IMG/VR virus record: IMGVR_UViG_2541047923_000007 | Length of the DNA: 47,041 nt | Strand: one strand, 5' to 3' | DNA from: a virus | Taxonomy: Duplodnaviria; Heunggongvirae; Uroviricota; Caudoviricetes | Part shown: positions 3,309 to 45,402 of the stretch, one piece after another | Layout of the letters: each line of letters opens with the position of its first letter | Position numbering within the stretch: position 1 is the stretch's first letter | Notes under the pieces: model-generated | The model's database searches: none | What the model was told of the DNA's origin: nothing | What the model saw: the letters and a program-made list of their open reading frames with translations, nothing else | Made by a program: the position numbers and the translations under genes

Positions 3309-3884
3309 CTACGGCAGTGCTGGCCATTCAATATCCTGTGCAGTTGACGTATCAACACGGTTCAGCAATACCCGATACTTTTTCCATGCTTCCAGCAACG
3401 AGATTTCTTCCTCCGTTGCAATTTCCAGATCTGCAGCATCCTGAAGCGGCGCAATATGCTCACTGGCTACCTGCATCAGGTTGTTTTTTGTTTCTTCCGC
3501 CTCCCGGATCCGGAACAGTTTTTCTGCTTCCGTATCCTTCACCCAGGCTGTGCCGTTCCACTTCTGAAACTCCCCTTCCGGCGATAACCAGGTAACATTT
3601 TCCGGTAACGGACCGAGTTCAGAAATAAATAACGCGTCGCCGGAAGCCACGTCATAAACCGTTTTACCCCGATGATCTTCAACGAGATGCCACGATGACT
3701 CATCACTGTTGAAAACAGCCACGAAGCCAGCCGGAATATCTGGCGGTGCAATATCGGTACTGTTTGCTGGCAGACCTGTATGAGGCGGAATATATGCATC
3801 ACCTTCACCAATAAATTCATTAGTTCCGGCCAGCAGATTATAAATTTTTATGGTCCGTGGTTGTTCACTCATTCTGAATGCCAT
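3309..3884 (-). CDS. tfa: Tail fiber assembly protein Tfa
   Basis: 191 aa, near-identical to remembered lambda Tfa ([24 protein letters not shown]...). Confidence 0.9.
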
Positions 3885-27700: not shown

Positions 27701-27907
27701 CTTCATTTTCACTTTCTTAAATCTAACGACAGATGGCTAACATTTAAGTATTGTGAAATATTATCAAATGTAATCATCATTGATTTACAAAAGATACATT
27801 TTGCCCCGAAAGGATTTCTGTCAGAAACATCAAAAGATGATGTTCTATACTGAGAACCATGGCAACACGGGCATCTAAAGTGAATATGGTTTGTAATATT
27901 TTCTACC

Positions 27908-28120
27908 TCAAAGTGCCACTACATGAACAGCTGCAGGGCCTTTAGGTCCGTTCTCAATACCAAATTCGACTTCCTGATTCTCAGTTAACGTTTTGAAATC
28001 GTTGCTCTGAATAGCTGAGAAATGCACAAACACATCTTTGCTACCATCTTTCGGCGTGATGAAACCAAAACCTTTTTCAGGGTTAAACCATTTCACTAAA
28101 CCAGTCATTTTGTTAGACAT
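27908..28120 (-). CDS. cspI: Cold-shock protein, CspA family
   Basis: 70 aa [23 protein letters not shown]...AAVHVVAL matches remembered CspI; long upstream leader. Confidence 0.9.
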
Positions 28121-28483
28121 CATTATTACCTTTTGAAGAAGTTAGCCCTTGGGCAGAATGGTCCGAAAAAAAATATCAGAGAGAAAAACCAACAAGGAAA
28201 TCTCAAGAGGTACAAATAATAAAATTATAACAATGACTGCTTCAGATAATTTTGTAACAAACCAGAACACCATTAACGCATGATTAACCAACCATAGCAA
28301 GGATTACTTTTGTAAAGAAAAACACACGAATGAAACAATAGCTTTATTTATTAATAAAACGTGTCATTCTGTCTAATGACCTTTTATCTTACCCTTAAGA
28401 TTTCAAGGATTTTGACTCATGGAAGAGTCCTTTTTATTTAAATTTCACATTCAGCGCTAAAAATAATCCGATTTAATATTAAT

Positions 28484-29511: not shown

Positions 29512-29819
29512 AGATATTTATGATGAGGACGCTCGTGCTTATTGGCAGGATTTTCAATCTTAAAGGAGTACTGATGCTGCAGATAAGACTCAACTTTTTC
29601 TGACAATTTTTCTGCTACTTCCAGGAAGACTTGCCGGACGCTCATTCTGGCTGCTGCCTCATAAAACTCCAGCGCAGCTCCTTCAACACGGTCCATGGCG
29701 ACATCCAGGCCAAAAATTTCACCGTCAAAGCGTTCTTTGTCCTGTAAGGCTACAGTTACCGTAACTTTATTCTCAAAATTACGGACTCCTTTCACAACCA
29801 GTTCATAGTATTGAGTCAT
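29508..29819 (-). CDS. ydfR: YdfR-like protein (DUF1327) within the lysis cassette
   Basis: 103-aa ORF between holin and endolysin, as in the Qin essQ-ydfR-rrrQ arrangement. Confidence 0.6.
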
Positions 29820-29823
29820 TGGA

Positions 29824-30039
29824 TTACTCTCCTCTCGCAGCCTTACGCCTGTCTTCTTTAATCTTGAAATAAAGATTTGTCAGGTACGTCAGCAGGCCAA
29901 ATACCAGGCTACCCAGCACACCTATTGCTGCCCACTGTGAGGGCGTGACTTTATCGAGCAGCTGTAAAAACCAGTAGCCAGCACTGCCTGCGGAGGTGCC
30001 GTAGGCAATGCCTGTTGAAATTTTGTCCATGGATTTCAT
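29824..30039 (-). CDS. Holin, S21-type pinholin with dual-start motif
   Basis: [24 protein letters not shown]...[11 protein letters not shown] closely matches remembered S21; GGAGGTG Shine-Dalgarno. Confidence 0.9.
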
Positions 30040-30141
30040 AGCCTCACCTCCGCACGGAACGGATGGCATAGTTATTATGTGTAGGCTTCCAGACACATCA
30101 ATCAGAGCCTTAATTGATATATATGCTGGAGACGATGCAAT

Positions 30142-30165
30142 ATAAAAAGCTCGCCGTAGCGAGCT
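30142..30165 (-). terminator. Hairpin terminator downstream of TolA-like lipoprotein gene 1
   Basis: Minus-strand AGCUCGC-uacg-GCGAGCU followed by UUUUU. Confidence 0.5.
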
Positions 30166-30290
30166 AATAAAATGTATTTCTCTGATATTATGTTTATTTG
30201 TATTAGCTCAGACTTGACATCACAGGTTTCGTATATAGAACATCATCAAATCTGTCAGTTTGCTATGAATGAGATATAGTAATTGAAGAG

Positions 30291-30686
30291 CTAACCTCGC
30301 ATGTCAAAGCCAGATTTCTGAAAATCTCTGTAGACTTCCGGATTGTTGAAGGCCGGAAATTTGGCTTTATGAGCTGCGGACTTTATCGCTTCGCAATAGG
30401 CTTTATCACCGTTACTGGTAGATATTTTTAACGCCGTGCCATCCTGAGAGAATTCCATATGCAACCTGCATTTTTTCCCTTTCCAGTTATGCGGCTCATC
30501 AAGTTTGGCATTAATTGCAGCTCTGATTCCCCGCGCTTGCGCCCCCCATTCATCCTGATCATCCCAGCGTCCTGAACTGCAACTACCTGTAGCAGTAGTT
30601 TTGTGGCAATCTGAAGGGTGTAAAGGTGTGCATCCCGCAACAAAACCGACCCAAAAAGTCAACATAACGATTTTCTTTAATCCCAC
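30291..30686 (-). CDS. Lipoprotein with TolA domain III-like C-terminus (copy 1)
   Basis: GTG start with GAGGAG Shine-Dalgarno; lipobox FVAGC; C-terminal KKCRLHMEF...GDKAYCEAI...NNPEVYRDFQKSGFDM resembles the TolA C-terminal domain. Confidence 0.7.
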   Translation of the reverse strand: MGLKKIVMLTFWVGFVAGCTPLHPSDCHKTTATGSCSSGRWDDQDEWGAQARGIRAAINAKLDEPHNWKGKKCRLHMEFSQDGTALKISTSNGDKAYCEAIKSAAHKAKFPAFNNPEVYRDFQKSGFDMRG

Positions 30687-31265: not shown

Positions 31266-31798
31266 TTTTCCTCACATATGTCATATAGTAAAGGATTATA
31301 TATACCGTTGTTTTGGACGCTCAAACAGCGAATCAGATCAAATAAAACGCACATTTGTTAACATTTACACAAAGTCTGCGTGGGATATTCTGAAAGAATA
31401 TCCATAATGTGGAGAGAATCTATTGAAGTGCATGGTGCCGGGTGCCTCCCGGTGAATTCAGTACCAGCACCTGAATCCGCGATTATCCCATATACCTACT
31501 CGCTGATTGCCCCTCCGCACAGGGGGATTCACCATGCCAGTTTCTTTTAACAAACTCCCCGCAAACCAGAGAACAGTCAACCGCCTGAATTGTGAAGTAT
31601 TTAAAAATTTCTCCCGCTAACTGATACCCGGCTAACAGTCTGGCGTTTTCTTTTTCAGCAACGGGAAAGCAACAACCACCACACCCGCCACCAGCACACC
31701 GTCAGCCAGCACTGACATTATCCGGCTGCTGCAATGCCATTCACAAAAACAGTAAGCAATCACTTTTTACCGTAACAGGTGATAATCCAGATATGTAT

Positions 31799-32262: not shown

Positions 32263-32339
32263 TGGCGCGCTGTACTGGATTCGAACCAGTGACCGATTGC
32301 TTAGAAGGCAATTGCTCTGTCCGGCTGAGCTAACAACGC
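32263..32339 (-). tRNA. tRNA-Arg (anticodon UCU)
   Basis: Cloverleaf read by eye: acceptor GCGTTGT, anticodon loop CUUCUAA, T-loop GTTCGAATC, 3' CCA. Confidence 0.8.
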
Positions 32340-32352
32340 TGAATACCGATAA

Positions 32353-32433
32353 TGGACCGCCATCGGGGACCCGCCCCCGCACCAACAACCCTGTTATCGT
32401 GTCGTCTGCTCTTCCTGATAAGCTAATGGCGGT
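32353..32433 (-). tRNA. Degenerate tRNA-like element
   Basis: 7-bp acceptor-like stem (CCGCCAT/ATGGCGG) and 3' CCA but a non-canonical T-arm; lies between two good tRNAs. Confidence 0.25.
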
Positions 32434-32439
32434 TTGTGA

Positions 32440-32515
32440 TGGTGGCCCTTGCTGGATTTGAACCAGCGACCTGGCGATTATGAGTCGCTCGCTCTCACCA
32501 CTGAGCTAAAGGGCC
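32440..32515 (-). tRNA. tRNA-Ile2 (anticodon CAU, ileX/ileZ-like; Met-type anticodon)
   Basis: Near-identical to remembered E. coli ileX; anticodon loop CUCAUAA; 3' CCA. Confidence 0.85.
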
Positions 32516-33863: not shown

Positions 33864-34952
33864 TTACCCAAGCACGCCAGTTGCAAAGGCGTGATCAAGA
33901 AAACGAAAAATTAAATCAACCTGAGAACCATGCTTTTCTTCGAACGCCAGAGGATCCGCATGAAGCTCGTTGTGATGCTCCCGACACAGCGGTAGCGTGA
34001 AAATATCGTGAGATTTTGTCCCCATTCCGCCCTGACCATGACCAATCAGGTGATGGGGATCGTCGGCTGGCTTACCACAACACGCACACGGCTGTGTCTT
34101 CACCCAGCGTTTGTATTTCTCGTTAACCCAGCGGCGACGTTTAGGTCGTTTCATGAAAGATTCCGGAGACTCAGGATCAACGGCAATGCTGACCACCGTC
34201 TTTTCCTGTGGTGGGTTCTGTTGCTGGTGGGCGTGAGGCAGCGGCGCAAGATTTTTTGTGCGCTGTTTCAGTATGCTGGTGGCGGTCTGCTCTCCCGGTA
34301 CGATGTCGCTTTCGCGGTACACCGAGCAGATTTTTTCCGCTGGTAATCCCAGCGAACGACGCGATACAGCCTCAGGTAGTGCATCCACCACCTGATTGCA
34401 GACCGCCCACCAGGATAATTCAGCCAAAGATAATTCCCGCTCCTGCGTACCGCTTATTGCGTGACGGATGACGTCAATCACCCATGCTGTCAGATTTTGT
34501 TGAGCAAGCAGCTCCAGTGATTCCGATGTCTGGTCACGCAGTTGGTTGTCGCAGTGCCAACACAACACCATTGCGCCGGTACCATAACGGTGAATGACTG
34601 TTTCAGTGTGATGGTAATCTCCATTAGGCCACTGGCAGGATGTAACATGACGTAATAGCCAGTCAGACAATGCGCCAACGCCGCCAGCAGCACGAATCAC
34701 CCGTTCGTTACTAAAAAACGGCAGCAATGTTTTGTCTTCCGCCAGCGGCTGGCCAACGGCAGGAACGACTCCGGATGGCAGATTACGCATGCTTTTTGGT
34801 TCCGGTTCCACCAGCACTCGAGGATTATGAAATATCTGTATGGATTCACGGCCCGGCTTAAGGACCACCAGCCCAAGCTCAGGCACCAGAACAGGTCTAA
34901 GTAATACCCGCACGTTACCTCCAGATCCGTTGCTGGAAAGTGCGGGACGCAC
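33864..34952 (-). CDS. DUF968 protein (YdfU-like) with HNH-like Cys/His motif
   Basis: 362 aa; C-terminal CACCGK...HHLIGHGQGGMGTKSHD...CREHHNELH; GTG start. Confidence 0.65.
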   Translation of the reverse strand: MRPALSSNGSGGNVRVLLRPVLVPELGLVVLKPGRESIQIFHNPRVLVEPEPKSMRNLPSGVVPAVGQPLAEDKTLLPFFSNERVIRAAGGVGALSDWLLRHVTSCQWPNGDYHHTETVIHRYGTGAMVLCWHCDNQLRDQTSESLELLAQQNLTAWVIDVIRHAISGTQERELSLAELSWWAVCNQVVDALPEAVSRRSLGLPAEKICSVYRESDIVPGEQTATSILKQRTKNLAPLPHAHQQQNPPQEKTVVSIAVDPESPESFMKRPKRRRWVNEKYKRWVKTQPCACCGKPADDPHHLIGHGQGGMGTKSHDIFTLPLCREHHNELHADPLAFEEKHGSQVDLIFRFLDHAFATGVLG

Positions 34953-35193
34953 GTGGTGGGCGTTCGGAGTAAGGCAATCTGACTGAGATTATCCAGTGAC
35001 GGTAGTCGAGACTAAGGGCTTTCTTAACCTCGTATCCGCGCCTGCGGTAACACTGAATTATCCATTCAGCCTGCTCTTCAGTGCATGGAGGGTGTTGGAA
35101 CCATTCAGACTTGAATGCGTGAGAATACCGCTCGTGCGTGCAGGCAAGAACGGGCGAATTATCAGAATTGTAATATTTTACGTTGCGTGCCAT
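34915..35193 (-). CDS. Rem-like small prophage protein
   Basis: 92 aa with GGAGA Shine-Dalgarno; sits between ydfU and hokD as rem does in Qin. Confidence 0.5.
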   Translation of the reverse strand: MARNVKYYNSDNSPVLACTHERYSHAFKSEWFQHPPCTEEQAEWIIQCYRRRGYEVKKALSLDYRHWIISVRLPYSERPPRASRTFQQRIWR

Positions 35194-35727: not shown

Positions 35728-35883
35728 TTACTCCTCAGGTTCGTAAGCTGTGAAGACAGCGACCTCCGTCTGCCCGGTTCGGATTCGTACCTCGCAGAGG
35801 TCTTTCCTCGTTACCAGTGCCGTCACTATGACGGTTAAACAGATGACGATCAGGGCGATTAACATCGCCTTTTGCTGCTTCAT
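35728..35883 (-). CDS. hokD: Hok-family type I toxin
   Basis: 51 aa MKQQKAMLIALIVICLTVIVTALVTRKDLCEVRIRTGQTEVAVFTAYEPEE matches remembered HokD; overlapping upstream mok-like frame extends to 35940. Confidence 0.85.
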   Translation of the reverse strand: MKQQKAMLIALIVICLTVIVTALVTRKDLCEVRIRTGQTEVAVFTAYEPEE

Positions 35884-36119
35884 AGCCTGCTTCTCCTTGC
35901 CTTTCGGCACGTAAGAGGCTAACCTACATGTGTCTAGCATGAAATTGGCCTCAGATTAATGTTAAGCGTCTTGCAGGACGCGTAATGTTAACTGGGGCTT
36001 TTCTCTATCTGCCGTTGGTGTTCATGCCCGAGGCAGATAGCCTCAAGCACCCGCAGCAATTTTACTTAACTCCCGCTACCTCGCCAATATGAAATCAATA
36101 AGAAAGGTGCTCCATAAAA

Positions 36120-36806
36120 TCACTCCTTCTCTTCTTTACCGTAGTGGAGTTGACCAATTTTGATAAGAGGGCGTCCCTGAGATTTGCGGTGTAGATTGGT
36201 ATCGCGCAGAGAATACACACAGCCACAATATTCCTGCTGATAGAATTTTTCGCGCTTGCTGATTTCAATCATGCGGGACGAGCCGCCCTGCTTGCGCCAG
36301 TTATAATCCCAGTACACCATGCCCGGATAATGCGCGACGGCTCGCCGCCCACAGTCGTTAACCTGCTGCATATTTTTCCAGCGTGAAATGCCCAGTGAAC
36401 TGCTGATCACACTGAAACCATTTTCAGCAGCGTACAGCGCTGTCCGCTCAAAACGCATGTCAAAACACATGGTACAACGGATCCCCCTCTCGGGCTCCCA
36501 TTCCATTCCTTTGGCACGTTCAAACCAGTTGTCTGTGTCGTAATCAGCATCAATAAATGGCACGCCGTGTTGTTCAGCAAAGCGAATATTCTCATCCTTA
36601 CGAATTAAATACTCTTTCTGAGGATGAATGTTCGGGTTGTAGAAAAAGATGGTATAGTCGATTCCCGAGGCCTGAAGCGCCTCCATCACTTCACCGGAAC
36701 ATGGAGCACAGCAAGAGTGCAGTAGTAGTTTGTTTGCCCCGTTTGGGAGCTCCAATTTAGGCCGTTTGAAATCAGCAATAGTCATAAATATTTTTATTGG
36801 GGTCAT
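36120..36806 (-). CDS. DUF208 protein, epoxyqueuosine reductase QueH-like
   Basis: 228 aa with N-terminal [11 protein letters not shown] and C-terminal [11 protein letters not shown] cysteine motifs, as remembered for the QueH family. Confidence 0.5.
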
Positions 36807-36969
36807 GAAAATAGCACAGAGTGTAGCATCAGAGCAGGGCTATCGGGAATAGATGTCTAAATCTGGTAATATCTGCTTTTGACACAAAGCAGACAACCAC
36901 GCTAGCTCAATCCTGTGCCGTGAAAATGTCAATTCACATCTGAACTAATGCTCTTTAATCGAGTAACGT

Positions 36970-37386
36970 CTATAAATAACGAAAATTTCTCTGATAAAAT
37001 GCCAGTATGCGCTGCATAACTTCGCTCTTCCGGCACTCACAGCAAATTATGTTTTGGTGCCTGTCATAACGACGTATTTCTCCGTCAGGTAATGACCAGA
37101 TAAGGTCCGGATCAACCACAGATGGTTTCTTCACCTTTGCCCTAGATAGTTTTTTGCGGGCATTTTGCCAGTCCTTACGAGCCTGTTCAGACGGGAATAA
37201 CCCGTAGCCAGAGTTGTATACATCGCCACTGGCAACCAGCTCTCTGGCGAGAACGCTCATCAGATATCTTGTCGCACCTGTCTTGGCTTCCAGTTGCCGT
37301 AACGTCTCGCGCCCACTCCGGCGTACTAGCTCAACAACCTGTCCCTTGATTTTTTCCCGCTCTTCTTGTGTAAATACTTTTGCCAT
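36970..37386 (-). CDS. Hypothetical protein
   Basis: ATG at 37384-37386 with GGAGG Shine-Dalgarno; basic C-terminus with a CCEC motif. Confidence 0.5.
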   Translation of the reverse strand: MAKVFTQEEREKIKGQVVELVRRSGRETLRQLEAKTGATRYLMSVLARELVASGDVYNSGYGLFPSEQARKDWQNARKKLSRAKVKKPSVVDPDLIWSLPDGEIRRYDRHQNIICCECRKSEVMQRILAFYQRNFRYL

Positions 37387-37401
37387 AAGCGCCTCCGGCA
37401 A

Positions 37402-38115
37402 TCACTTTTCCGATGCAACACAGCGAGAAGAATCAGTAATCTGTCGAACAATATCCCGGTACTTGTTCAGCTCCCGCAGCGCGGCGCAGACACGCTCCCA
37501 CTTCTGGACATGATTTTTCGCCCGGCGCAGCTCACGGTTTGCCATGTGCAGCGACTGCACAATGTCCGCCACAGTTTCTGTTTTAATATCTTCCTGTGTT
37601 GCATCTTTCTGTACCGGCAACGCAACACCTGCTGGCTGAGGAAAGGCTTTAAAATCAGTTTCCGTTACCGATGCAGCTTTCGGCTCTGCTGGTAAATTAT
37701 TGCCCGGTATGCAGTAACGAAATTTACCGTTCTGATTTACGCGAATCAGGCGTCCTTTGCTGATTGCCATTGCCAGCGTTGAAGCAATTTTGCGGGATGT
37801 GGTACCGAACAGCGTAGCCAGTTCATCCGCCGTTTGTGGTCCGCGTTGTTCAATCGTCGCGGTTAAATCGCACTCTGAGATTTTCGCTACTGTTGCCGTG
37901 GTGGTTTCTTCCGGCAGTTCTGCCTGCATTGGCTGTTCCTGCTGAACGTTGTTATCAGCCACACGCCAGGTGTACGCGCTTTTATCAACGAAACCAGCTT
38001 TTTTCAGTTCCCATAGTTCGTTCAACACTTCTTCACGACTGATATCAAGTCGCGCAGCAAGTTCTATGGATGTGGCTTTTCCCATTGCTTTCAGTGCGTC
38101 AAAAACAGTCTCCAT
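37402..38115 (-). CDS. Hypothetical protein with winged-helix-like domains
   Basis: ATG at 38113-38115 with GGGAGGA Shine-Dalgarno; HTH-like segments ([29 protein letters not shown]). Confidence 0.5.
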
Positions 38116-38137
38116 TAAAATTTCCTCCCGATAAAAA

Positions 38138-38884
38138 TTACTTCGCAGTTCCTGGCTGGACGACATTTGGACGCCAGCTCTCCCAGTTAAAATTCACCCA
38201 TCGCCCGCCGTTCATGGTCATGCGATCCATAATCCGCTCGCCGAGCAATGTTTTCATGGCCTCATAGTTCAGGTTTGTCAGCATTCCCACGCTACGCATC
38301 GACGCTGTCCGTCGATCAATAATCTGGTGCAGTACCACCTGCTCGTTTTTCGTCTCGCGCTGAATGCCAATTTCATCAAGAACCAGCAGATCCACTTCGC
38401 ACAGTTCCCGCAAAAATTTTTCGCCTGACTGCCCATCGTCATAGCTGGCGTGGAGGGCACTCATAACATCAGCCACGGTAACCACAATCACTGTCTGACC
38501 GTCTTTCAGCAGGCGATTCCCGATAGCTGCTGCTAAGTGGTTCTTCCCGGTACCAGGTTTTCCGCTAAACGCGAAATTTGTGCATCCGGTAACCAGTTCG
38601 TCAGCGATAGATTTTGCCTGACTCAACGCGTATCGCTGGCCGTCGTTCTGCACCTGGTAATTCACAAACGAGCATTTACGGTGCAACGGCTGGATGCCTG
38701 AGCGATTCAGAATTTTTTCCACCCGCAACTGGCGATTCAGGCGGTTGATCTCCTCGCTACGTTTCTGGCCTTCAGCAAGTTGCCACTCGCGCCACTCCGC
38801 TACCGTTCTGAATGGGGCGGTTACATGTGGCGGGGTCAGTCGGCGGATGCGTTCCAGAACGCCGCCTGTCGCAATATTTTTCAT
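38138..38884 (-). CDS. DnaC-like replication ATPase (helicase loader, YdaV-like)
   Basis: 248 aa; Walker [12 protein letters not shown], Walker B LLVLDEIG. Confidence 0.85.
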
Positions 38885-38890
38885 GGTTCG

Positions 38891-39697
38891 TTACCCCCTG
38901 AAGCCTGGCGGGATCGCACTGTCCGGCAACGAGACGGTGTTAACCTGTCTGAGCAACGTCTCAGGCCGAACACCTTTCGGCGCGAACAAGCCCTGGTATT
39001 CATTGGCGATGCTATGTCGAATCACCTGCTCAGGGGTAAAACCCTGCTGGCGGAATTTTTCCAGCTCCCGTATCGCCCCGTTAGCGCCCTGCTCCGTTCG
39101 AATCGGTTTACGCAATGCATGGCGAAATTCAACCCACTCACGCCAAAGCGAGACAGAAATCCAGTTCGGCAAAGCAATATCCAGAGGGTCAAACTTTTTG
39201 ACACCTCGATTCCCCCGGGGGGGATTTAGGGGGGGATCTGTTTTTAGATCTTTATCTGTATCTTTATTAGTTGCCTTTGTGTTGACATCATGTTCAAACA
39301 CCACTTCAACATCTGTTTGAACACCTGTTAAATTTCTCTCTTGTTTTGTTTGAACATCTGCTTCCTTTCTGCTTCTTCTGGCCTGAACAGATGCTTTTCC
39401 TGCGGCTGATTTTTTGGTTAATTTTTCCCTGACTGATGCCAGATCTTCCTCAATCCGAAGATGCACCCATTCCTCGCCGTTATCGCAAAAAAACTCCCGC
39501 AAGGATGGTTCAACATCAGCCCATCGCTCGTTAGTCAGACGGGCAATTTTTGCCAGCCTGTTTTTGGGTATTGGCTTTCCTGTTTGCCAGTAATTGAACA
39601 TCAGCAACAAATACGCACCGTGCTCCTCTGCTGACAAATGCATGGTGTCAGCCAGGTAATCAGCTATGTACAGTTGCATGTATGGTAATGCGGCCAT
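38891..39697 (-). CDS. Replication initiation protein (YdaU-like)
   Basis: Start MAALPYMQLYIADYL... with Shine-Dalgarno; position upstream of the DnaC-like gene. Confidence 0.65.
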   Translation of the reverse strand: MAALPYMQLYIADYLADTMHLSAEEHGAYLLLMFNYWQTGKPIPKNRLAKIARLTNERWADVEPSLREFFCDNGEEWVHLRIEEDLASVREKLTKKSAAGKASVQARRSRKEADVQTKQERNLTGVQTDVEVVFEHDVNTKATNKDTDKDLKTDPPLNPPRGNRGVKKFDPLDIALPNWISVSLWREWVEFRHALRKPIRTEQGANGAIRELEKFRQQGFTPEQVIRHSIANEYQGLFAPKGVRPETLLRQVNTVSLPDSAIPPGFRG

Positions 39698-39760
39698 AAT
39701 TGCCCCGTATGATGCTGCCCGGTTGCTTAGAATAAGCACAAACAGCATGAAAACTTTTGC

Positions 39761-40183
39761 TTAATGAACAATGACAGAATCGTCGGAAGACCCGCCACCG
39801 CTGAAATATGCTTTACGGTAAACGGCCTGGACTGCATCATCATGCGCATCAATTGCCGTACTCAACGCTTCCTGCGCCGCCAGTAATGCACGGCGTTCCA
39901 GGGTATCGAAGATGCAGAGTCGGTGACGCAGCTCGCGCGGAAGAATTGCCAGAACCGCAGGGATCAGTTTCTGAATTTTTTCCCTTTGCGCTTTCGTTTC
40001 ACCTTTCAACCAACGGTGATAGATATTCTGCTGATTGTTCCAGTCCTTGCCTGGTACCAGGGGCAATTCGCCGCCCCCCTGGCGCAGATATTCTTCAGTA
40101 ATTGCGTTAGCAACCCACGCCTGCCCTTTTTCGGCTGCTAGGGCTAACAACACTGATTCGATGTGCTCATGCCTGATTTTCAT
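39761..40183 (-). CDS. YdaT-like protein
   Basis: 140 aa, same length and position as Rac ydaT downstream of the Cro-like gene; start overlaps it (ATGA). Confidence 0.55.
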   Translation of the reverse strand: MKIRHEHIESVLLALAAEKGQAWVANAITEEYLRQGGGELPLVPGKDWNNQQNIYHRWLKGETKAQREKIQKLIPAVLAILPRELRHRLCIFDTLERRALLAAQEALSTAIDAHDDAVQAVYRKAYFSGGGSSDDSVIVH

Positions 40184-40422
40184 GAATCAACCGCTCCTAT
40201 GCTGTTTTCGCTATGCTTACCGTCTGGGGGGAATACATCGTCAAGTCCACAATGAGCACCAAGCCGATTAAGGGTGGAAACAATTTTTCTGCACTCCTCT
40301 AGCCCAGGGGTACGAAAATTTGCTTCGTAATTTGCCAGTCGGCTTTGTATCCACCCTAGCTGAACAGCGAGTTGTCTTTGAGACAGACCAAGTTGTTTTC
40401 GATATGTTGAAATTTTGTTCAT
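40180..40422 (-). CDS. Cro/YdaS-like HTH regulator
   Basis: 80 aa with HTH QRQLAVQLGWIQSRLANYE; GGAGG Shine-Dalgarno; divergent from the repressor gene. Confidence 0.75.
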   Translation of the reverse strand: MNKISTYRKQLGLSQRQLAVQLGWIQSRLANYEANFRTPGLEECRKIVSTLNRLGAHCGLDDVFPPDGKHSENSIGAVDS

Positions 40423-40439
40423 TAAAAACCTCCGACGAC

Positions 40440-40510
40440 AATTTTAAACACACCTTGTGTTTTACGGTCAAGCTATTTTGTGTTTTATATAAATCACGAT
40501 TCGTGATACA
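40440..40510. promoter_or_regulatory. Divergent promoter/operator region (OR analogue)
   Basis: Palindrome AAACACA-cct-TGTGTTT at 40446-40462, a further TGTGTTT half-site, and palindrome ATCACGAtTCGTGAT around 40492-40506. Confidence 0.55.
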
Positions 40511-40518
40511 AGGACGAA

Positions 40519-40938
40519 ATGGAAAAAGAAAACGAAAAAATTGCCGCTAGTAGGCTCAATGACAAAATTGCAATGCGTCTTAAAGAGCGCAGGCAGAAGC
40601 TTGGTTTATCTCAAGGAAAACTTGCTGAAATCTGCGGATGGACGCAATCGCGTATAGGTAACTATGAGGCGGGCAGCAGAAATGTTGGAGTGCATGATGC
40701 TGTCGTCCTGGGAAAGGCGCTGGGCATATCTCCTCCTGAGCTCCTCTTTGGGGAAAAAGACTCTTCTGAATTGTGGTTAAATGAATCCCAACGAAAACTT
40801 CTTGAGTTGTTTAACCAGCTACCGGGCTCAGAACAACAACGAATGATTGAGCTATTTGAAGTCCGGCTAAAAGAAATCGACGAGTATGTAGAAAAATATT
40901 TGAGGGGCAGGCTTAAAGATACCCCCCCACCGGAGTAA
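40519..40938 (+). CDS. Prophage repressor, XRE-family HTH (DicA/RacR/CI analogue)
   Basis: 139 aa; HTH LGLSQGKLAEICGWTQSRIGNYE; AAGGA Shine-Dalgarno; divergent from the Cro-like gene. Confidence 0.8.
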   Translation: MEKENEKIAASRLNDKIAMRLKERRQKLGLSQGKLAEICGWTQSRIGNYEAGSRNVGVHDAVVLGKALGISPPELLFGEKDSSELWLNESQRKLLELFNQLPGSEQQRMIELFEVRLKEIDEYVEKYLRGRLKDTPPPE

Positions 40939-40964
40939 TGATCTTGCTATCACAGTAATATGCC

Positions 40965-40996
40965 AATCAGCCCGCTATCAGCGGGCTTTTTTTGTA
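40965..40996 (+). terminator. Rho-independent terminator after the repressor gene
   Basis: AGCCCGC-tatc-AGCGGGCT followed by TTTTTTT. Confidence 0.6.
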
Positions 40997-41024
40997 CCAT
41001 CATCATATGACACGCCACCATAAA

Positions 41025-41063
41025 AACACATTTTGTGTTGGCATGCAAAAACCCTTTGTGTTT
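41025..41063. promoter_or_regulatory. Operator-like sites upstream of the ydfA-dicB operon (OL analogue)
   Basis: AACACA-ttt-TGTGTT palindrome at 41025-41039 and a further TGTGTTT half-site, same half-site as in the 40446 operator. Confidence 0.5.
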
Positions 41064-41240
41064 AATAAGCATATCCAAACAACGCCCCACCGGAGAACGG
41101 CAGGACAATACCTCGAGTTATCCAGCCACTGAACAGGGCTAAGTAGCCAGCCTGAGGCATACGAACATGACGGCAGTTGTTGATTGATACAAAGCGCAGT
41201 AGATAAAACGTTCCGCCACCCGGCGTTAAGGGGAAAAAAG

Positions 41241-41375
41241 ATGGTGCATTACGAAGTAGTTCAGTATTTGATGGATTGTTGCGGTATCACTTACAGCCAG
41301 GCTGTGCAGGCTTTACGTAGCAACGACTGGGATCTCTGGCAAGCAGAAGCCTCTATCCGCAACAACAAGATGTGA
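41241..41375 (+). CDS. YdfA-like small protein
   Basis: ATG at 41241 with GGGGAAAAAAG upstream; first gene of the plus-strand early-left operon as ydfA is in Qin. Confidence 0.5.
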   Translation: MVHYEVVQYLMDCCGITYSQAVQALRSNDWDLWQAEASIRNNKM

Positions 41376-41385
41376 GGTGCGAAAA

Positions 41386-41541
41386 ATGCAAAAAATCGAC
41401 CTCGGCAATAACGAATCCATGGTGTGCGGCGTGTTCCCCAACCAGGATGGAACGTTCACCGCCATGACTTATACCAAAAGCAAAACATTTAAAACCGAAA
41501 CTGGTGCGCGCCGATGGTTGGAGAAGCACACAGTAAGCTAA
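41386..41541 (+). CDS. YdfB-like small protein (51 aa)
   Basis: ATG at 41386 with GAGGTG upstream; MQKIDLGNNESMVCGVFPNQDGTFTAMTYTKSKTFKTETGARRWLEKHTVS; below the ORF-track cutoff. Confidence 0.5.
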   Translation: MQKIDLGNNESMVCGVFPNQDGTFTAMTYTKSKTFKTETGARRWLEKHTVS

Positions 41542-41966
41542 CGATTAAAACGTCTACTCCTGCTGTTCCAGAATAACTTCATAAAATGGGAGTATTTTTC
41601 GGTGACGAGATAATAAGAACAGTTTGCGCTATCACTCTGATGTTGAATGATGCCCTTCCGTTCTAATTTTTTCATAACCGGGTTACGGCAAGGAGAAGTG
41701 ATAATAAGATTTCCTGTTTTAAGGAAATCTTTAAATACAGCGATTTCTTTCTCAGATAAACGAAGCAATACTCGTTGCTCTGGTAGTAATGAATAATGCT
41801 TTTGAATATGTGCTCGCAATCTTGAGAAGGAAATGGCGACCACGAAAGAAAAGGCAAAAACGATAATCTGAAAGAGCCAAGGTATTTCAGTATAAGCATT
41901 GAATGCGACAGTAAACTCTTTCGGTATCAGCCAGAGAGTGAGACCAAAAATGATAATCGTATACAT
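41538..41966 (-). CDS. Two-TM membrane protein, candidate superinfection-exclusion protein
   Basis: AT-rich ORF reading against the surrounding operon; two N-terminal hydrophobic helices then a soluble domain; ATG at 41964-41966. Confidence 0.5.
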   Translation of the reverse strand: MYTIIIFGLTLWLIPKEFTVAFNAYTEIPWLFQIIVFAFSFVVAISFSRLRAHIQKHYSLLPEQRVLLRLSEKEIAVFKDFLKTGNLIITSPCRNPVMKKLERKGIIQHQSDSANCSYYLVTEKYSHFMKLFWNSRSRRFNR

Positions 41967-42234
41967 AAGTCTTTCGATGTGGCTCGTTAGCAAAAAGTTT
42001 CAACAATGGAGTAAATACATCCAACATATCAATAACTCTCAACTGTAAGGGTATTGAAATGTTAACACAAGCTCTCGCTGTAGGGGTATAGCCGAGACCA
42101 CCGAAGCCCGGAGGTGGTGAAATAAAACTGGGCGCAACACGAAGGCGCATTTCCGATATCCATAAAGAGTCGGTCTTGTCTGTTAAATTTAAATGGTGGG
42201 AGTGCGCCTCCGGTTGTAAATAACGACATTGCTG

Positions 42235-42292
42235 TGTGTAGTCTTGGCGGCATCAGTTTTTTCTTGAAGTTCGGCTGATGTCCGCCCTTTTT
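42235..42292 (+). ncRNA. dicF: DicF-like sRNA with intrinsic terminator
   Basis: TGGCGGCATCAGTTTT...CCGCCCTTTTT resembles remembered K-12 DicF; downstream spacer AAAGTGAATTTTGTGATG matches the remembered dicF-dicB intergenic sequence. Confidence 0.5.
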
Positions 42293-42461
42293 AAAGTGAA
42301 TTTTGTGATGCGGTGAATGCGGCTGAGCGCACGCGGAACAGTTAAAACCAAAAACAGTGTTATGGGTGGATTCTCTGTATCCGGCGTTAATTGTTAACTG
42401 GTTAACGTCACCTGGAGGCACCAGGCACCGCATCACAAAATTCATTGTTGAGGACGCGATA

Positions 42462-42650
42462 ATGGAAACGTTATTACCAAACGTTAATACGTCTGAAGGT
42501 TGTTTTGAAATTGGTGTCACTATCAGTAACCCTGTATTTACTGAAGATGCCATTAACAAGAGAAAACACGAACGGAAGCTATTAAATAAAATATGCATTC
42601 TTTCAATGTTGGCCCGTTTACGTCCGATACAAAAAGGATGCTGGCAATGA
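42462..42650 (+). CDS. dicB: Cell division inhibitor DicB
   Basis: 62 aa METLLPNVNTSEGCFEIGVTISNPVFTEDAINKRK... near-identical to remembered K-12 DicB. Confidence 0.9.
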   Translation: METLLPNVNTSEGCFEIGVTISNPVFTEDAINKRKHERKLLNKICILSMLARLRPIQKGCWQ

Positions 42651-42930: not shown

Positions 42931-45402
42931 ATGAGTAAAGTCTTTATTTGCGCCGCCATTCCGGACGAACAGGCAATAAAGGAAGAAGGTGCCGTCGCTG
43001 TAGCCACTGCCATTGAAGCCGGTGATGAACGTCGCGCCCGCGCAAAATTTCACTGGCAATTCCTGGAACATTATCCGGCTGCTCAGGACTGCGCTTATAA
43101 ATTTCTTGTTTGCGAGGATAAACCCGGTATACCCCGCCCTGCCCTCGATTCCTGGGATGCTGAATATATGCAGGAAAACCGCTGGGATGAGGCGTCTGCT
43201 TCCTTTGTCCCGGTCGAGACTGAATCCGATCCGATGAACGTCACTTTTGACAACCTAGCCCCTGAAGTACAGAACGCTGTCATGGTTAAGTTCGACACAT
43301 GTGAAAACATCACTGTTGATATGGTGATTAGCGCACAGGAATTGTTGCAGGAAGACATGGCAACATTCGACGGCCATATCGTTGAAGCGTTGATGAAAAT
43401 GCCAGAAGTTAACGCTATGTATCCGGAGCTTAAGCTGCATGCCATCGGGTGGGTTAAGCATAAATGTAAGCCTGGTGCCAAATGGCCCGAAATTCAGGCA
43501 GAGATGCGCATCTGGAAAAAACGTCGCGAAGGTGAACGCAAGGAAGCCGGAAAATACACGTCTGTTGTTGATCTCGCCCGCGCCAGAGCCAATCAACAGC
43601 ACACTGAAAATTCAACAGGAAAAATCAACCCGGTCATTGCTGCCATTCATCGCGAATACAAGCAGACATGGAAAACACTGGATGACGAACTGGCCTACGC
43701 TCTCTGGCCTGGTGATGTGGATGCCGGAAACATTGACGGCAGCATCCATCGCTGGGCAAAAAATGAAGTTATCGACAACGACCGCGAAGACTGGAAGCGT
43801 ATCTCGGCATCAATGCGCAAACAGCCTGATGCCCTTCGCTACGACCGCCAGACTATTTTTGGCCTTGTCCGTGAACGTCCGATCGACATTCACAAAGACC
43901 CTGTGGCACTGAACAAATACATTACTGAATACCTGACTACAAAGGGCGTGTTTGAAGATGAAGGAACAAATCAGAGCGCAACTGATACTCTCTCGTCGCC
44001 AGTACCAGAAACTGATGCAGTGGAAACGGCAATTCCAGACAACGAAAAAACCGAATGCAAAGTGGAAGTCGAACCATCTGTAGAACGTGAGGGGCCGTTC
44101 TACTTCCTCTTCACCGACAAGGATGGCGAAAAATACGGTCGCGCAAATAAACTTTCTGGTCTGGATAAGGCGCTGTCTGCTGGGGCTACTGAAATCACGA
44201 AAGAAGAATATTTCGCCCGCAAAAACGGTACATACTCAGGTTCACAACAAAATACTGGTGCATCTGACACGACCGCACAACCAGGGTCAGTAAAAGTTAC
44301 CGCTGACGAAGTAAACAAAATTATGCAGGCAGCCAATATCAGCCAGCCTGACGCCGATGAACTGCTTGCAGTATCACGTGGTGAATTTGTTGAAGGGATT
44401 AGCGACCCGAATGATCCGAAATGGATTAAGGGGATCCAGACCCGCGATTCTGTGAACCAGAACCAGCAAGAAACGGAACAGAACGACCAGAAAGCGGAAC
44501 AAAACAGCCCAAATACGCAACAAAACGAGCCAGAAACGAAACAACCTGAACCAGTAGTGCAACAGGAACCGGAAAAGATCTGCACCGCCTGCGGTCAGAG
44601 CGGTGGCGGCAACTGCCCTGATTGTGGTGCGGTGATGGGTGACGCAACATACCAGGAAATATTCGATGGAGAGAATCAGCCTGAAGTTCAGAAAAATGAT
44701 CTGGAGGAAATGGAAGGCTCTGCGCATCAGCACAAGGAGAACACTGGCAGCAATCAGCATCATGCCAGCGATAGTGAAACTGGCGAGGCGTCAGATCCCT
44801 TAATTAAGGCGAACGGTCATCATAATCTCACATCCACCAGCAGAGCGGGGATTCATCTGATGATCGACCTTGAAACCATGGGAAAAAATCCCGATGCCCC
44901 GATTATCTCAATAGGTGCAATATTTTTCGATCCGCAAACCGGAGATATGGGACCGGAATTTAGTAAGACTATCGATCTGGAAACTGCTGGCGGAGTCATT
45001 GATCGGGACACCATTAAATGGTGGCTTAAACAATCACGCGAAGCGCAATCTGCCATTATGACCGATGAAATCCCGTTAGATGATGCACTGTTACAATTGC
45101 GGGAATTTATCGACGAAAACTCCGGTGAATTTTTTGTTCATGTCTGGGGAAATGGAGCCAACTTCGACAACACGATTTTGCGCCGTTCATACGAACGGCA
45201 GGGGATCCCCTGCCCGTGGCGTTACTACAACGATCGCGATGTACGCACAATCGTTGAGCTGGGGAAAGCCATAGACTTCGATGCCAGAACGGCTATTCCA
45301 TTCGAAGGTGAGCGCCATAATGCACTTGATGACGCCCGTTACCAGGCAAAATACGTTTCAGCTATCTGGCAAAAACTGATCCCGAGTCAGGCTGATTCTT
45401 AA
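42931..45402 (+). CDS. Large early-left protein: N-terminal YdfE-like region, Gln/Glu-rich linker, zinc ribbon, C-terminal DEDDh 3'-5' exonuclease domain
   Basis: 823 aa; Exo I IDLETMG, Exo II WGNGANFD, Exo III HNALDDARY; CTACGQSGGGNCPDCG zinc ribbon; GAGGT Shine-Dalgarno. Confidence 0.65.
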   Translation: MSKVFICAAIPDEQAIKEEGAVAVATAIEAGDERRARAKFHWQFLEHYPAAQDCAYKFLVCEDKPGIPRPALDSWDAEYMQENRWDEASASFVPVETESDPMNVTFDNLAPEVQNAVMVKFDTCENITVDMVISAQELLQEDMATFDGHIVEALMKMPEVNAMYPELKLHAIGWVKHKCKPGAKWPEIQAEMRIWKKRREGERKEAGKYTSVVDLARARANQQHTENSTGKINPVIAAIHREYKQTWKTLDDELAYALWPGDVDAGNIDGSIHRWAKNEVIDNDREDWKRISASMRKQPDALRYDRQTIFGLVRERPIDIHKDPVALNKYITEYLTTKGVFEDEGTNQSATDTLSSPVPETDAVETAIPDNEKTECKVEVEPSVEREGPFYFLFTDKDGEKYGRANKLSGLDKALSAGATEITKEEYFARKNGTYSGSQQNTGASDTTAQPGSVKVTADEVNKIMQAANISQPDADELLAVSRGEFVEGISDPNDPKWIKGIQTRDSVNQNQQETEQNDQKAEQNSPNTQQNEPETKQPEPVVQQEPEKICTACGQSGGGNCPDCGAVMGDATYQEIFDGENQPEVQKNDLEEMEGSAHQHKENTGSNQHHASDSETGEASDPLIKANGHHNLTSTSRAGIHLMIDLETMGKNPDAPIISIGAIFFDPQTGDMGPEFSKTIDLETAGGVIDRDTIKWWLKQSREAQSAIMTDEIPLDDALLQLREFIDENSGEFFVHVWGNGANFDNTILRRSYERQGIPCPWRYYNDRDVRTIVELGKAIDFDARTAIPFEGERHNALDDARYQAKYVSAIWQKLIPSQADS

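Follow-up and report, generated by a model that had tools for sequence, protein, structure and literature searches.

The window, by which we mean the whole 47,041-nucleotide stretch of the Caudoviricetes record IMGVR_UViG_2541047923_000007, carries an ORF of 142 aa on its minus strand, antisense to the early-left operon and beside the immunity region. The ORF and its neighbors are as follows.

40519-40938, plus strand: DicA/cI-like repressor of the immunity region (NCBIfam HTH and DicA-subfamily matches).
40969-40987: terminator-like hairpin after the repressor, from a terminator scan.
41241-41375, plus strand: ydaG-like gene, 44 aa; a hypothetical protein is annotated at the equivalent place in K56-43-un.
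41386-41541, plus strand: ydaF/ydfA-family gene (DUF1391), 51 aa (Pfam PF07151, E 4e-28).
41538-41966, minus strand: the 142-aa ORF, equal to SieB residues 21-162, with TM1, TM2 and a winged-helix-like cytoplasmic domain.
41538-42027, minus strand: Rac-type sieB, +1 frameshifted, 490 nt, delimited by alignment to K-12 b1353.
41978: inserted base (A on the coding strand, CCAC[A]TCG), with the frame shifted after codon 17.
42233-42287, plus strand: DicF-like sRNA of the Rac (KilS) type (Rfam DicF, 41.1 bits, E 4e-7; gathering score 48).
42462-42650, plus strand: dicB, 62 aa, of the Qin type (NCBIfam and Pfam DicB).

The ORF is present as the first-pass annotation of this DNA had described it, on the minus strand and AT-rich, with a G+C content of 37% for the gene compared with 50% for the window and 43-46% for the flanks. 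The stop of the ORF overlaps that of the convergent plus-strand gene at 41386-41541 by 4 nt, also as described, but the partner, which had been called ydfB, is a member of the DUF1391 family (ydaF/ydfA). An upstream TTG at 41993 lies in the same open frame and would permit a product of 151 aa. The ydaG-like 44-aa protein on the other strand shows a weak UBA-like match (PF14555, E 5e-5) that is barely above the cut-off.

The early-left strand on which these neighbors lie has two sources. The segment at 42233-42287 is nearly identical to the kilS region of K-12 Rac and diverged from Qin dicF, and the "dicF" of the earlier reading is thus a Rac-type KilS/DicF-like copy that scores below the Rfam gathering threshold. 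In a three-way alignment the sequence is of Rac type up to ~42290-42320 and of Qin type onward, the switch falling inside a segment common to both prophages, and the matches to Rac-like genomes stop at 42446. Judged by its sequence, the region is a Rac/Qin mosaic with a recombination joint at ~42290-42320. The exact combination of the Rac genes ydaG, ydaF, sieB and kilS with the Qin dicB leader and dicB was found in none of the complete E. coli genomes. The ORF had been placed in a Qin ydfA-dicF-dicB operon; its early-left position and reverse orientation hold, but the operon is this Rac/Qin mosaic. Similarly, the ORF occupies the slot of Qin ydfC by position only. Indeed, ydfC lies after the DUF1391-type small genes and ahead of dicF/dicB, but it encodes 72 aa on the operon strand, whereas the sieB gene of the window is antisense, and the exact counterpart of the latter is sieB of K-12 Rac.

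Beyond dicB lie a DUF1482 gene and then the gene for an 823-aa protein (42931-45402, plus strand), which takes the slot of Rac recE. The N-terminal part of this protein is long, acidic and of low complexity, while its C terminus harbors an Rv2179c-like 3'-5' exoribonuclease domain (Pfam E 7e-67), and related genomes name it "3'-5' exonuclease". The dicB leader (42285-42494, plus strand) gives a sub-threshold match to STnc100 (40 bits versus 47), a full copy of which is located elsewhere in the window (31376-31566, minus strand). The other Rfam matches, all on the minus strand (3343-3541, 27862-28278, 32266-32515 and 35878-36052), are to IS009, the cspA thermoregulator, two tRNAs and the sok antitoxin RNA; such IS009, cspA, tRNA and hok/sok-type matches are typical lambdoid-prophage cargo.

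The profile search proposed in the first-pass annotation identified the ORF as a member of the SieB family. Pfam PF14163 (Super-infection exclusion protein B) matches with E 9.3e-32 and 110.1 bits against a cut-off of 26, the alignment placing ORF residues 1-140 on positions 1-142 of the 147-position model, and PHROG 6399 (SieB superinfection exclusion) matches with E 2.4e-58. When the neighborhood was compared by megablast with 5,426 complete E. coli genomes, thousands of records matched, and the PGAP name for the matched feature is "sieB: superinfection exclusion B family protein". The suggestion that the ORF belongs to a SieB-like exclusion or abortive-infection class was therefore borne out, by full-length Pfam and PHROG matches as well as by nucleotide identity with Rac sieB, while the soluble domain said to lack a recognizable motif falls within the Pfam SieB domain. 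The ORF region belongs to the SieB family on the grounds of sequence, architecture and place in the genome, and it is essentially the K-12 Rac gene. The ORF had been presented as an unrecognized protein, but the gene has a name and already appears in the annotation of over a thousand complete E. coli genomes; no new kind of gene is involved. The sieB family was described in P22 and lambda between the 1970s and the 1990s.

Scans of the ORF against NCBIfam and PADLOC matched no family; because neither library models SieB, these blanks are not evidence against the assignment. When the family profile was searched against PDB sequences, no relative of solved structure was found. A tblastn search of a phage collection with Rac SieB returned only three near-identical phages, the lambda and P22 proteins being too diverged for tblastn, and the lambda and P22 loci were brought in by accession. 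Other identities that were considered and rejected are a holin, a YdfC replacement of unknown type and a chance AT-rich ORF, the last in view of the Pfam SieB score.

Two N-terminal transmembrane helices had been predicted for the ORF, and the topology check agrees. Hydropathy analysis shows two hydrophobic segments (ORF residues 1-15 and 28-47) followed by a K/R-rich stretch, a pattern that is consistent with a two-pass topology with both termini inside. An AlphaFold2 model of the ORF, computed with 45 SieB family members as input, has helices at both hydrophobic segments and a compact C-terminal domain (mean pLDDT 77). The ORF thus has the SieB family arrangement, in which two transmembrane helices at the N terminus precede a cytoplasmic C-terminal domain.

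Comparison with K-12 reveals that this ORF is only part of a longer gene. Over 641 nt, covering the gene and its upstream region, the window is identical to sieB of the MG1655 Rac prophage (b1353, SIEB_ECOLI, 162 aa) with the exception of one extra base. At this position the coding strand reads CCAC-TCG in K-12 and CCACATCG in the window, and in silico removal of base 41978 yields the exact 162-aa K-12 SieB. Translation from the ATG at 42027-42025 gives 17 native residues, then 29 out-of-frame residues and a stop at 41887-41889 (46 codons); no intact frame runs from the SieB start codon in the window copy. The 142-aa ORF corresponds to the 3' 87% of the 162-codon sieB, the true gene extending 61 nt further upstream. 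Because deletion of 41978 restores K-12 SieB exactly, we conclude that the ORF is a frameshift remnant and not, as had been supposed, an intact 142-aa protein: it has lost the SieB start and the first 20 codons to the +1 frameshift. The window copy is a SieB family member by descent that has been disrupted, and it is probably disabled. The identical 490-nt feature is annotated by PGAP as "sieB, frameshifted" in the three records inspected (K56-43-un, 13P484A and RM9513). There is a practical lesson here, as the boundaries of the ORF hide the pseudogene.

Since the difference from K-12 is a single base in otherwise identical sequence, it could reflect a sequencing or assembly error in an intact gene. 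We regard this as extremely improbable, as the site is not a homopolymer run and the same insertion recurs across three backgrounds in no fewer than 21 independent complete genomes and is also seen in a Logan contig. To count alleles we used 34-35-nt probes, each seeding on one allele only; identity bands from a 61-nt probe were unreliable, as insertion alleles with an extra SNP share a band with intact alleles. In this short-probe count, 1,308 complete E. coli genomes have the intact junction, 5 have the insertion with a window-type or RM9513-type flank, and 16 further genomes have the insertion together with a nearby AAC>AAA change. The insertion is thus present in at least 21 of ~1,350 carriers (~1.6%), while ~97% of carriers keep the intact frame. 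It occurs in at least three sequence backgrounds, in which the downstream ORF is still open. The closest genomes to the window, K56-43-un and N1420 (99.7% over 36000-42446), both contain the insertion allele.

A compensated derivative also argues against an error. The protein variant P0040, present on 62 contigs, reads ...AKEPHRKLMY..., with EPHRKL in place of EPLERL, and from this protein sequence we infer that a −1 a few bases after the +1 insertion has restored the frame. P0040 suggests that the full-length frame is worth restoring and is under selection. The frame state of sieB codons 14-19 (window 41970-41985) is polymorphic, with intact EPLERL, +1 and restored EPHRKL forms (L009, L133 and L134; P0040 and P0050).

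Upstream of the broken frame, the regulatory region of the gene is represented by the following features.

42036-42064, minus strand: predicted sieB promoter and leader, by homology, with a −10 element TAACAT at 42064-42059 and a start near 42052.
42043-42133, plus strand (early-left): sas-like antisense block, from a match to the published P22 sas RNA sequence.
42043-42052 and 42074-42088, plus strand: the sas-block motifs CTGTAAGGGT and CTCGCTGTAGGGGTA, respectively.
42097-42102 and 42113-42118, plus strand: stem S1, ACCACC and GGTGGT.
42106-42111 and 42128-42133, plus strand: stem S2, GCCCGG and CTGGGC.

The promoter was placed purely by homology, through alignment to lambda and to the P22 sieB promoter and RNA start in BK000583. 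A generic σ70 scan did not flag the sieB promoter, and the sites that it found were no more numerous than in shuffled sequence. In P22, the sas RNA starts opposite the SieB start codon and crosses the leader and promoter (PMC13397905). The plus strand of the window at 42043-42133 aligns with this P22 sas sequence and keeps the conserved motifs and the paired stems, and the frameshift at 41978 is outside the sas-complementary part. The sas-like block is conserved in lambda, P22, Yersinia, Hafnia and IMG/VR contigs. Indeed, in comparisons among lambda, P22, Rac and Yersinia, conservation of the sieB upstream DNA far exceeds that of the proteins. Because the promoter and sas block, both predicted, are conserved, the window appears to retain the whole known SieB/Esc/sas module apart from the broken frame.

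Whether the frameshift matters depends on whether the long frame is the real gene. The ORF preserves both transmembrane helices and the entire C-terminal domain, the Pfam SieB model begins at the Met of the ORF, the promoter is intact by homology, and public data include 565 contigs on which the 142-aa sequence has been called as a protein. These features are what would be expected if the 142-aa ORF were a working SieB, with the 20 upstream codons dispensable, the frameshift harmless and the prophage still able to exclude. We find this reading very doubtful. The N-terminal 20 residues (MLDVFTPLLKLFANEPLERL and variants) are kept in Citrobacter, Yersinia and metagenome homologues at 67-73% identity, and lambda SieB has the N-terminal motif NEPLER-x-MY in common with the Rac type, so that the N terminus is partly conserved even there. 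Between K-12 and Yersinia sieB, 11 of codons 1-21 differ, 7 of them synonymously and 4 with an amino acid change, and in the same comparison the other two frames over these codons contain stops. Because of this excess of synonymous differences and the stops in the other frames, the first 20 sieB codons have the pattern expected of a segment that is translated and under constraint. A GAGAG Shine-Dalgarno sequence (42040-42036) is positioned 8 nt ahead of the ATG at 42027. This purifying selection on the first 20 codons across genera, the maintenance of the long frame in 97% of the complete genomes with the gene and the apparently frame-restoring second-site allele P0040 all weigh against a working 142-aa SieB. 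In addition, PGAP treats the +1 allele as a pseudogene, and in P22 it is the inhibitor Esc, rather than the exclusion factor, that lacks the N-terminal 24 residues (BK000583; PMC3224144).

The P22 and lambda systems indicate what the disrupted allele would do. Prophage SieB aborts the lytic growth of superinfecting heteroimmune phages, with RNA, DNA and protein synthesis halted in midcycle (PMC7380047; P22 and lambda). The sieB ORF also yields Esc, a shorter in-frame product that inhibits SieB (PMC3224144), and the sas antisense RNA toggles translation between SieB and Esc (PMC12197685; bioRxiv 787010). In the P22 record (GenBank BK000583; source cited as Ranade & Poteete 1993), sieB is at 29758-30336 (192 aa) and esc at 29830-30336, starting from Met25, and the sieB promoter and RNA start are annotated. 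Rac (M21), lambda (M24/M26) and P22 (M25, the annotated esc start) share a methionine at the N-terminal edge of TM1. The 142-aa ORF of the window starts at the Esc-equivalent position; the predicted equivalence is positional, to within ~2 alignment columns at ~20% identity. For Rac SieB itself, the literature searched yielded no experimental test.

Intact Rac-type SieB (162 aa) starts with a short segment in the cytoplasm, crosses the membrane with two helices and ends in a cytoplasmic C-terminal domain of winged-helix type. Its gene occupies the canonical sieB position of a Rac-like lambdoid prophage, antisense within the early-left operon and beside the immunity region, and by analogy with P22 and lambda it would be expressed from its own promoter. 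On infection, sas from the incoming phage would switch translation from SieB to Esc, as in the P22/lambda scheme. The insertion at 41978 falls downstream of the SieB start (42027) and upstream of the Esc-equivalent start (41966). Because it separates both starts, full-length SieB cannot be made from this allele, and the 142-aa ORF would be an Esc-equivalent remnant. Our preferred interpretation, which we hold with considerable confidence, is that the Rac-like sieB is broken by 41978 and the allele is SieB-minus, the 142-aa ORF being the Esc-equivalent remnant. Exclusion would be lost in the window allele, which would provide at most an Esc-like, nonkilling product; possibly, the genotype is SieB-minus with Esc retained. 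We further infer that killing requires the N-terminal ~20 residues. Esc could act by joining SieB oligomers in the membrane, in the manner of dual-start holin/antiholin pairs. Against our interpretation, a functional short form may be made from the 142-aa ORF, given the 565 contigs on which it is called and the start of the Pfam model at its Met.

Whether the remnant yields a product bears on a second reading, that of a maintained Esc-only variant in which the short product neutralizes the Rac-type SieB of coresident or incoming prophages and so serves as an antiexclusion factor. The frameshift lies exactly between the two starts, at least three backgrounds combine the insertion with an open downstream ORF, and P22 Esc acts in trans (PMC12197685). 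However, the allele is rare, at ~1.6% of the complete genomes with the gene, and no clear ribosome-binding site precedes the internal ATG at 41966. Ribosomes on the out-of-frame upstream reading would also cross this ATG; the 46-codon read-through may suppress initiation there, such that nothing is made. The spread across backgrounds is explicable by recombination of a neutral pseudogene. We therefore consider a maintained Esc-only variant unlikely. A further proposal, that the +1 at codons 17-19 is, rather than simple decay, one state of a recurring off/on polymorphism (LER, +1 and HRK) whose off state leaves an Esc-equivalent antidote, strikes us as distinctly unlikely. If true, a prophage defense gene would have been turned into an antidote that disarms the SieB of related prophages.

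On the preferred reading of a SieB-minus allele, the frameshift cleanly separates the SieB and Esc-equivalent starts and thereby provides a natural SieB-minus, Esc-candidate allele. Together, the naturally occurring intact, +1 and compensated alleles can be used to ask if the SieB/Esc logic of P22 holds for the Rac type.

Comparison with the known loci shows the same antisense placement in Rac, P22, lambda, Yersinia, Klebsiella, Hafnia and one metagenome contig. The Rac locus of K-12, besides its nucleotide identity over the gene and upstream region, has the equal 4-nt convergent overlap with ydaF (DUF1391) and the KilS/DicF-like sRNA beyond the sieB 5' end. Further on along the early-left strand the two differ, as the window continues into the Qin-type dicB whereas K-12 Rac continues into kilR. 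The P22 sieB/esc/sas locus has the Pfam family, the antisense position and the conserved promoter and antisense-RNA block in common with the window. In contrast, P22 SieB is only ~19% identical to the Rac-type protein, its gene adjoins gene 24 (the N homologue), where the neighbors in the window are ydaG and ydaF, and the SieB frame of the window is broken. Lambda sieB (git, 34482-35036) likewise belongs to the family and has the same orientation, the NEPLER-x-MY motif and an almost identical promoter/sas block, but its product is 23% identical to the Rac type and longer (184 aa), and the gene is directly beside N. More distant parallels are lambda RexAB and the dual-start holin/antiholin S105/S107, prophage membrane proteins that stop infected cells and that would be functional analogs. 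S105 and S107 are two products of one ORF that differ only N-terminally, one of which inhibits the other; S/S' and SieB/Esc are both listed as such pairs (PMC3224144), and no homology with SieB was found or is claimed.

The 3' part of the sas-like block (window 42074-42133) has an additional feature. After the 15-mer CTCGCTGTAGGGGTA, stems S1 and S2 interleave, with an A-rich third loop, and this appears to be an H-type pseudoknot arrangement in the 3' part of the sas-like RNA. The stems are conserved in lambda (L004), P22 (L006), Rac, Yersinia and Hafnia (also L007, L011 and L012) and in dozens of IMG/VR contigs (L013 onward). Compensatory variants are seen across phages in both stems: GCCTG:CAGGC, GCCCGG:CCGGGC and GCCGGG:CCCGGC for S2, and ACCAC:GTGGT, TCACG:CGTGA and AAGCACT:GGTGTTT for S1. 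The stems were scored sequence by sequence, as MAFFT had put the second stem of the Rac type one column off register, and the observed stem score was 29.6 compared with 7 in shuffled controls. Because G·U pairs form on the early-left strand only, these data suggest that the early-left transcript contains an RNA element. The interleaved-stem block matches no Rfam family.

A search of genome contigs with the family alignment found no related loci, and a scan of viral contigs with the 15-mer was used instead. In IMG/VR, 73 motif-bearing contigs fit the pseudoknot pattern, and in 52 of the 73 an antisense SieB gene is beside the block. In ~17 of the 73, however, the sieB slot holds a different protein of ~165 aa, PHROG 1244 (unknown function), encoded 5' of the 15-mer on the opposite strand (examples are L106, L118, L099, L119 and L050). 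The N-terminal half of this protein is coiled-coil-like, its C-terminal part has a CxxC...CxxC motif, and no Pfam family matches it. This arrangement suggests a conserved regulatory head with alternative cargo genes, of which the PHROG 1244 protein is possibly another exclusion factor.
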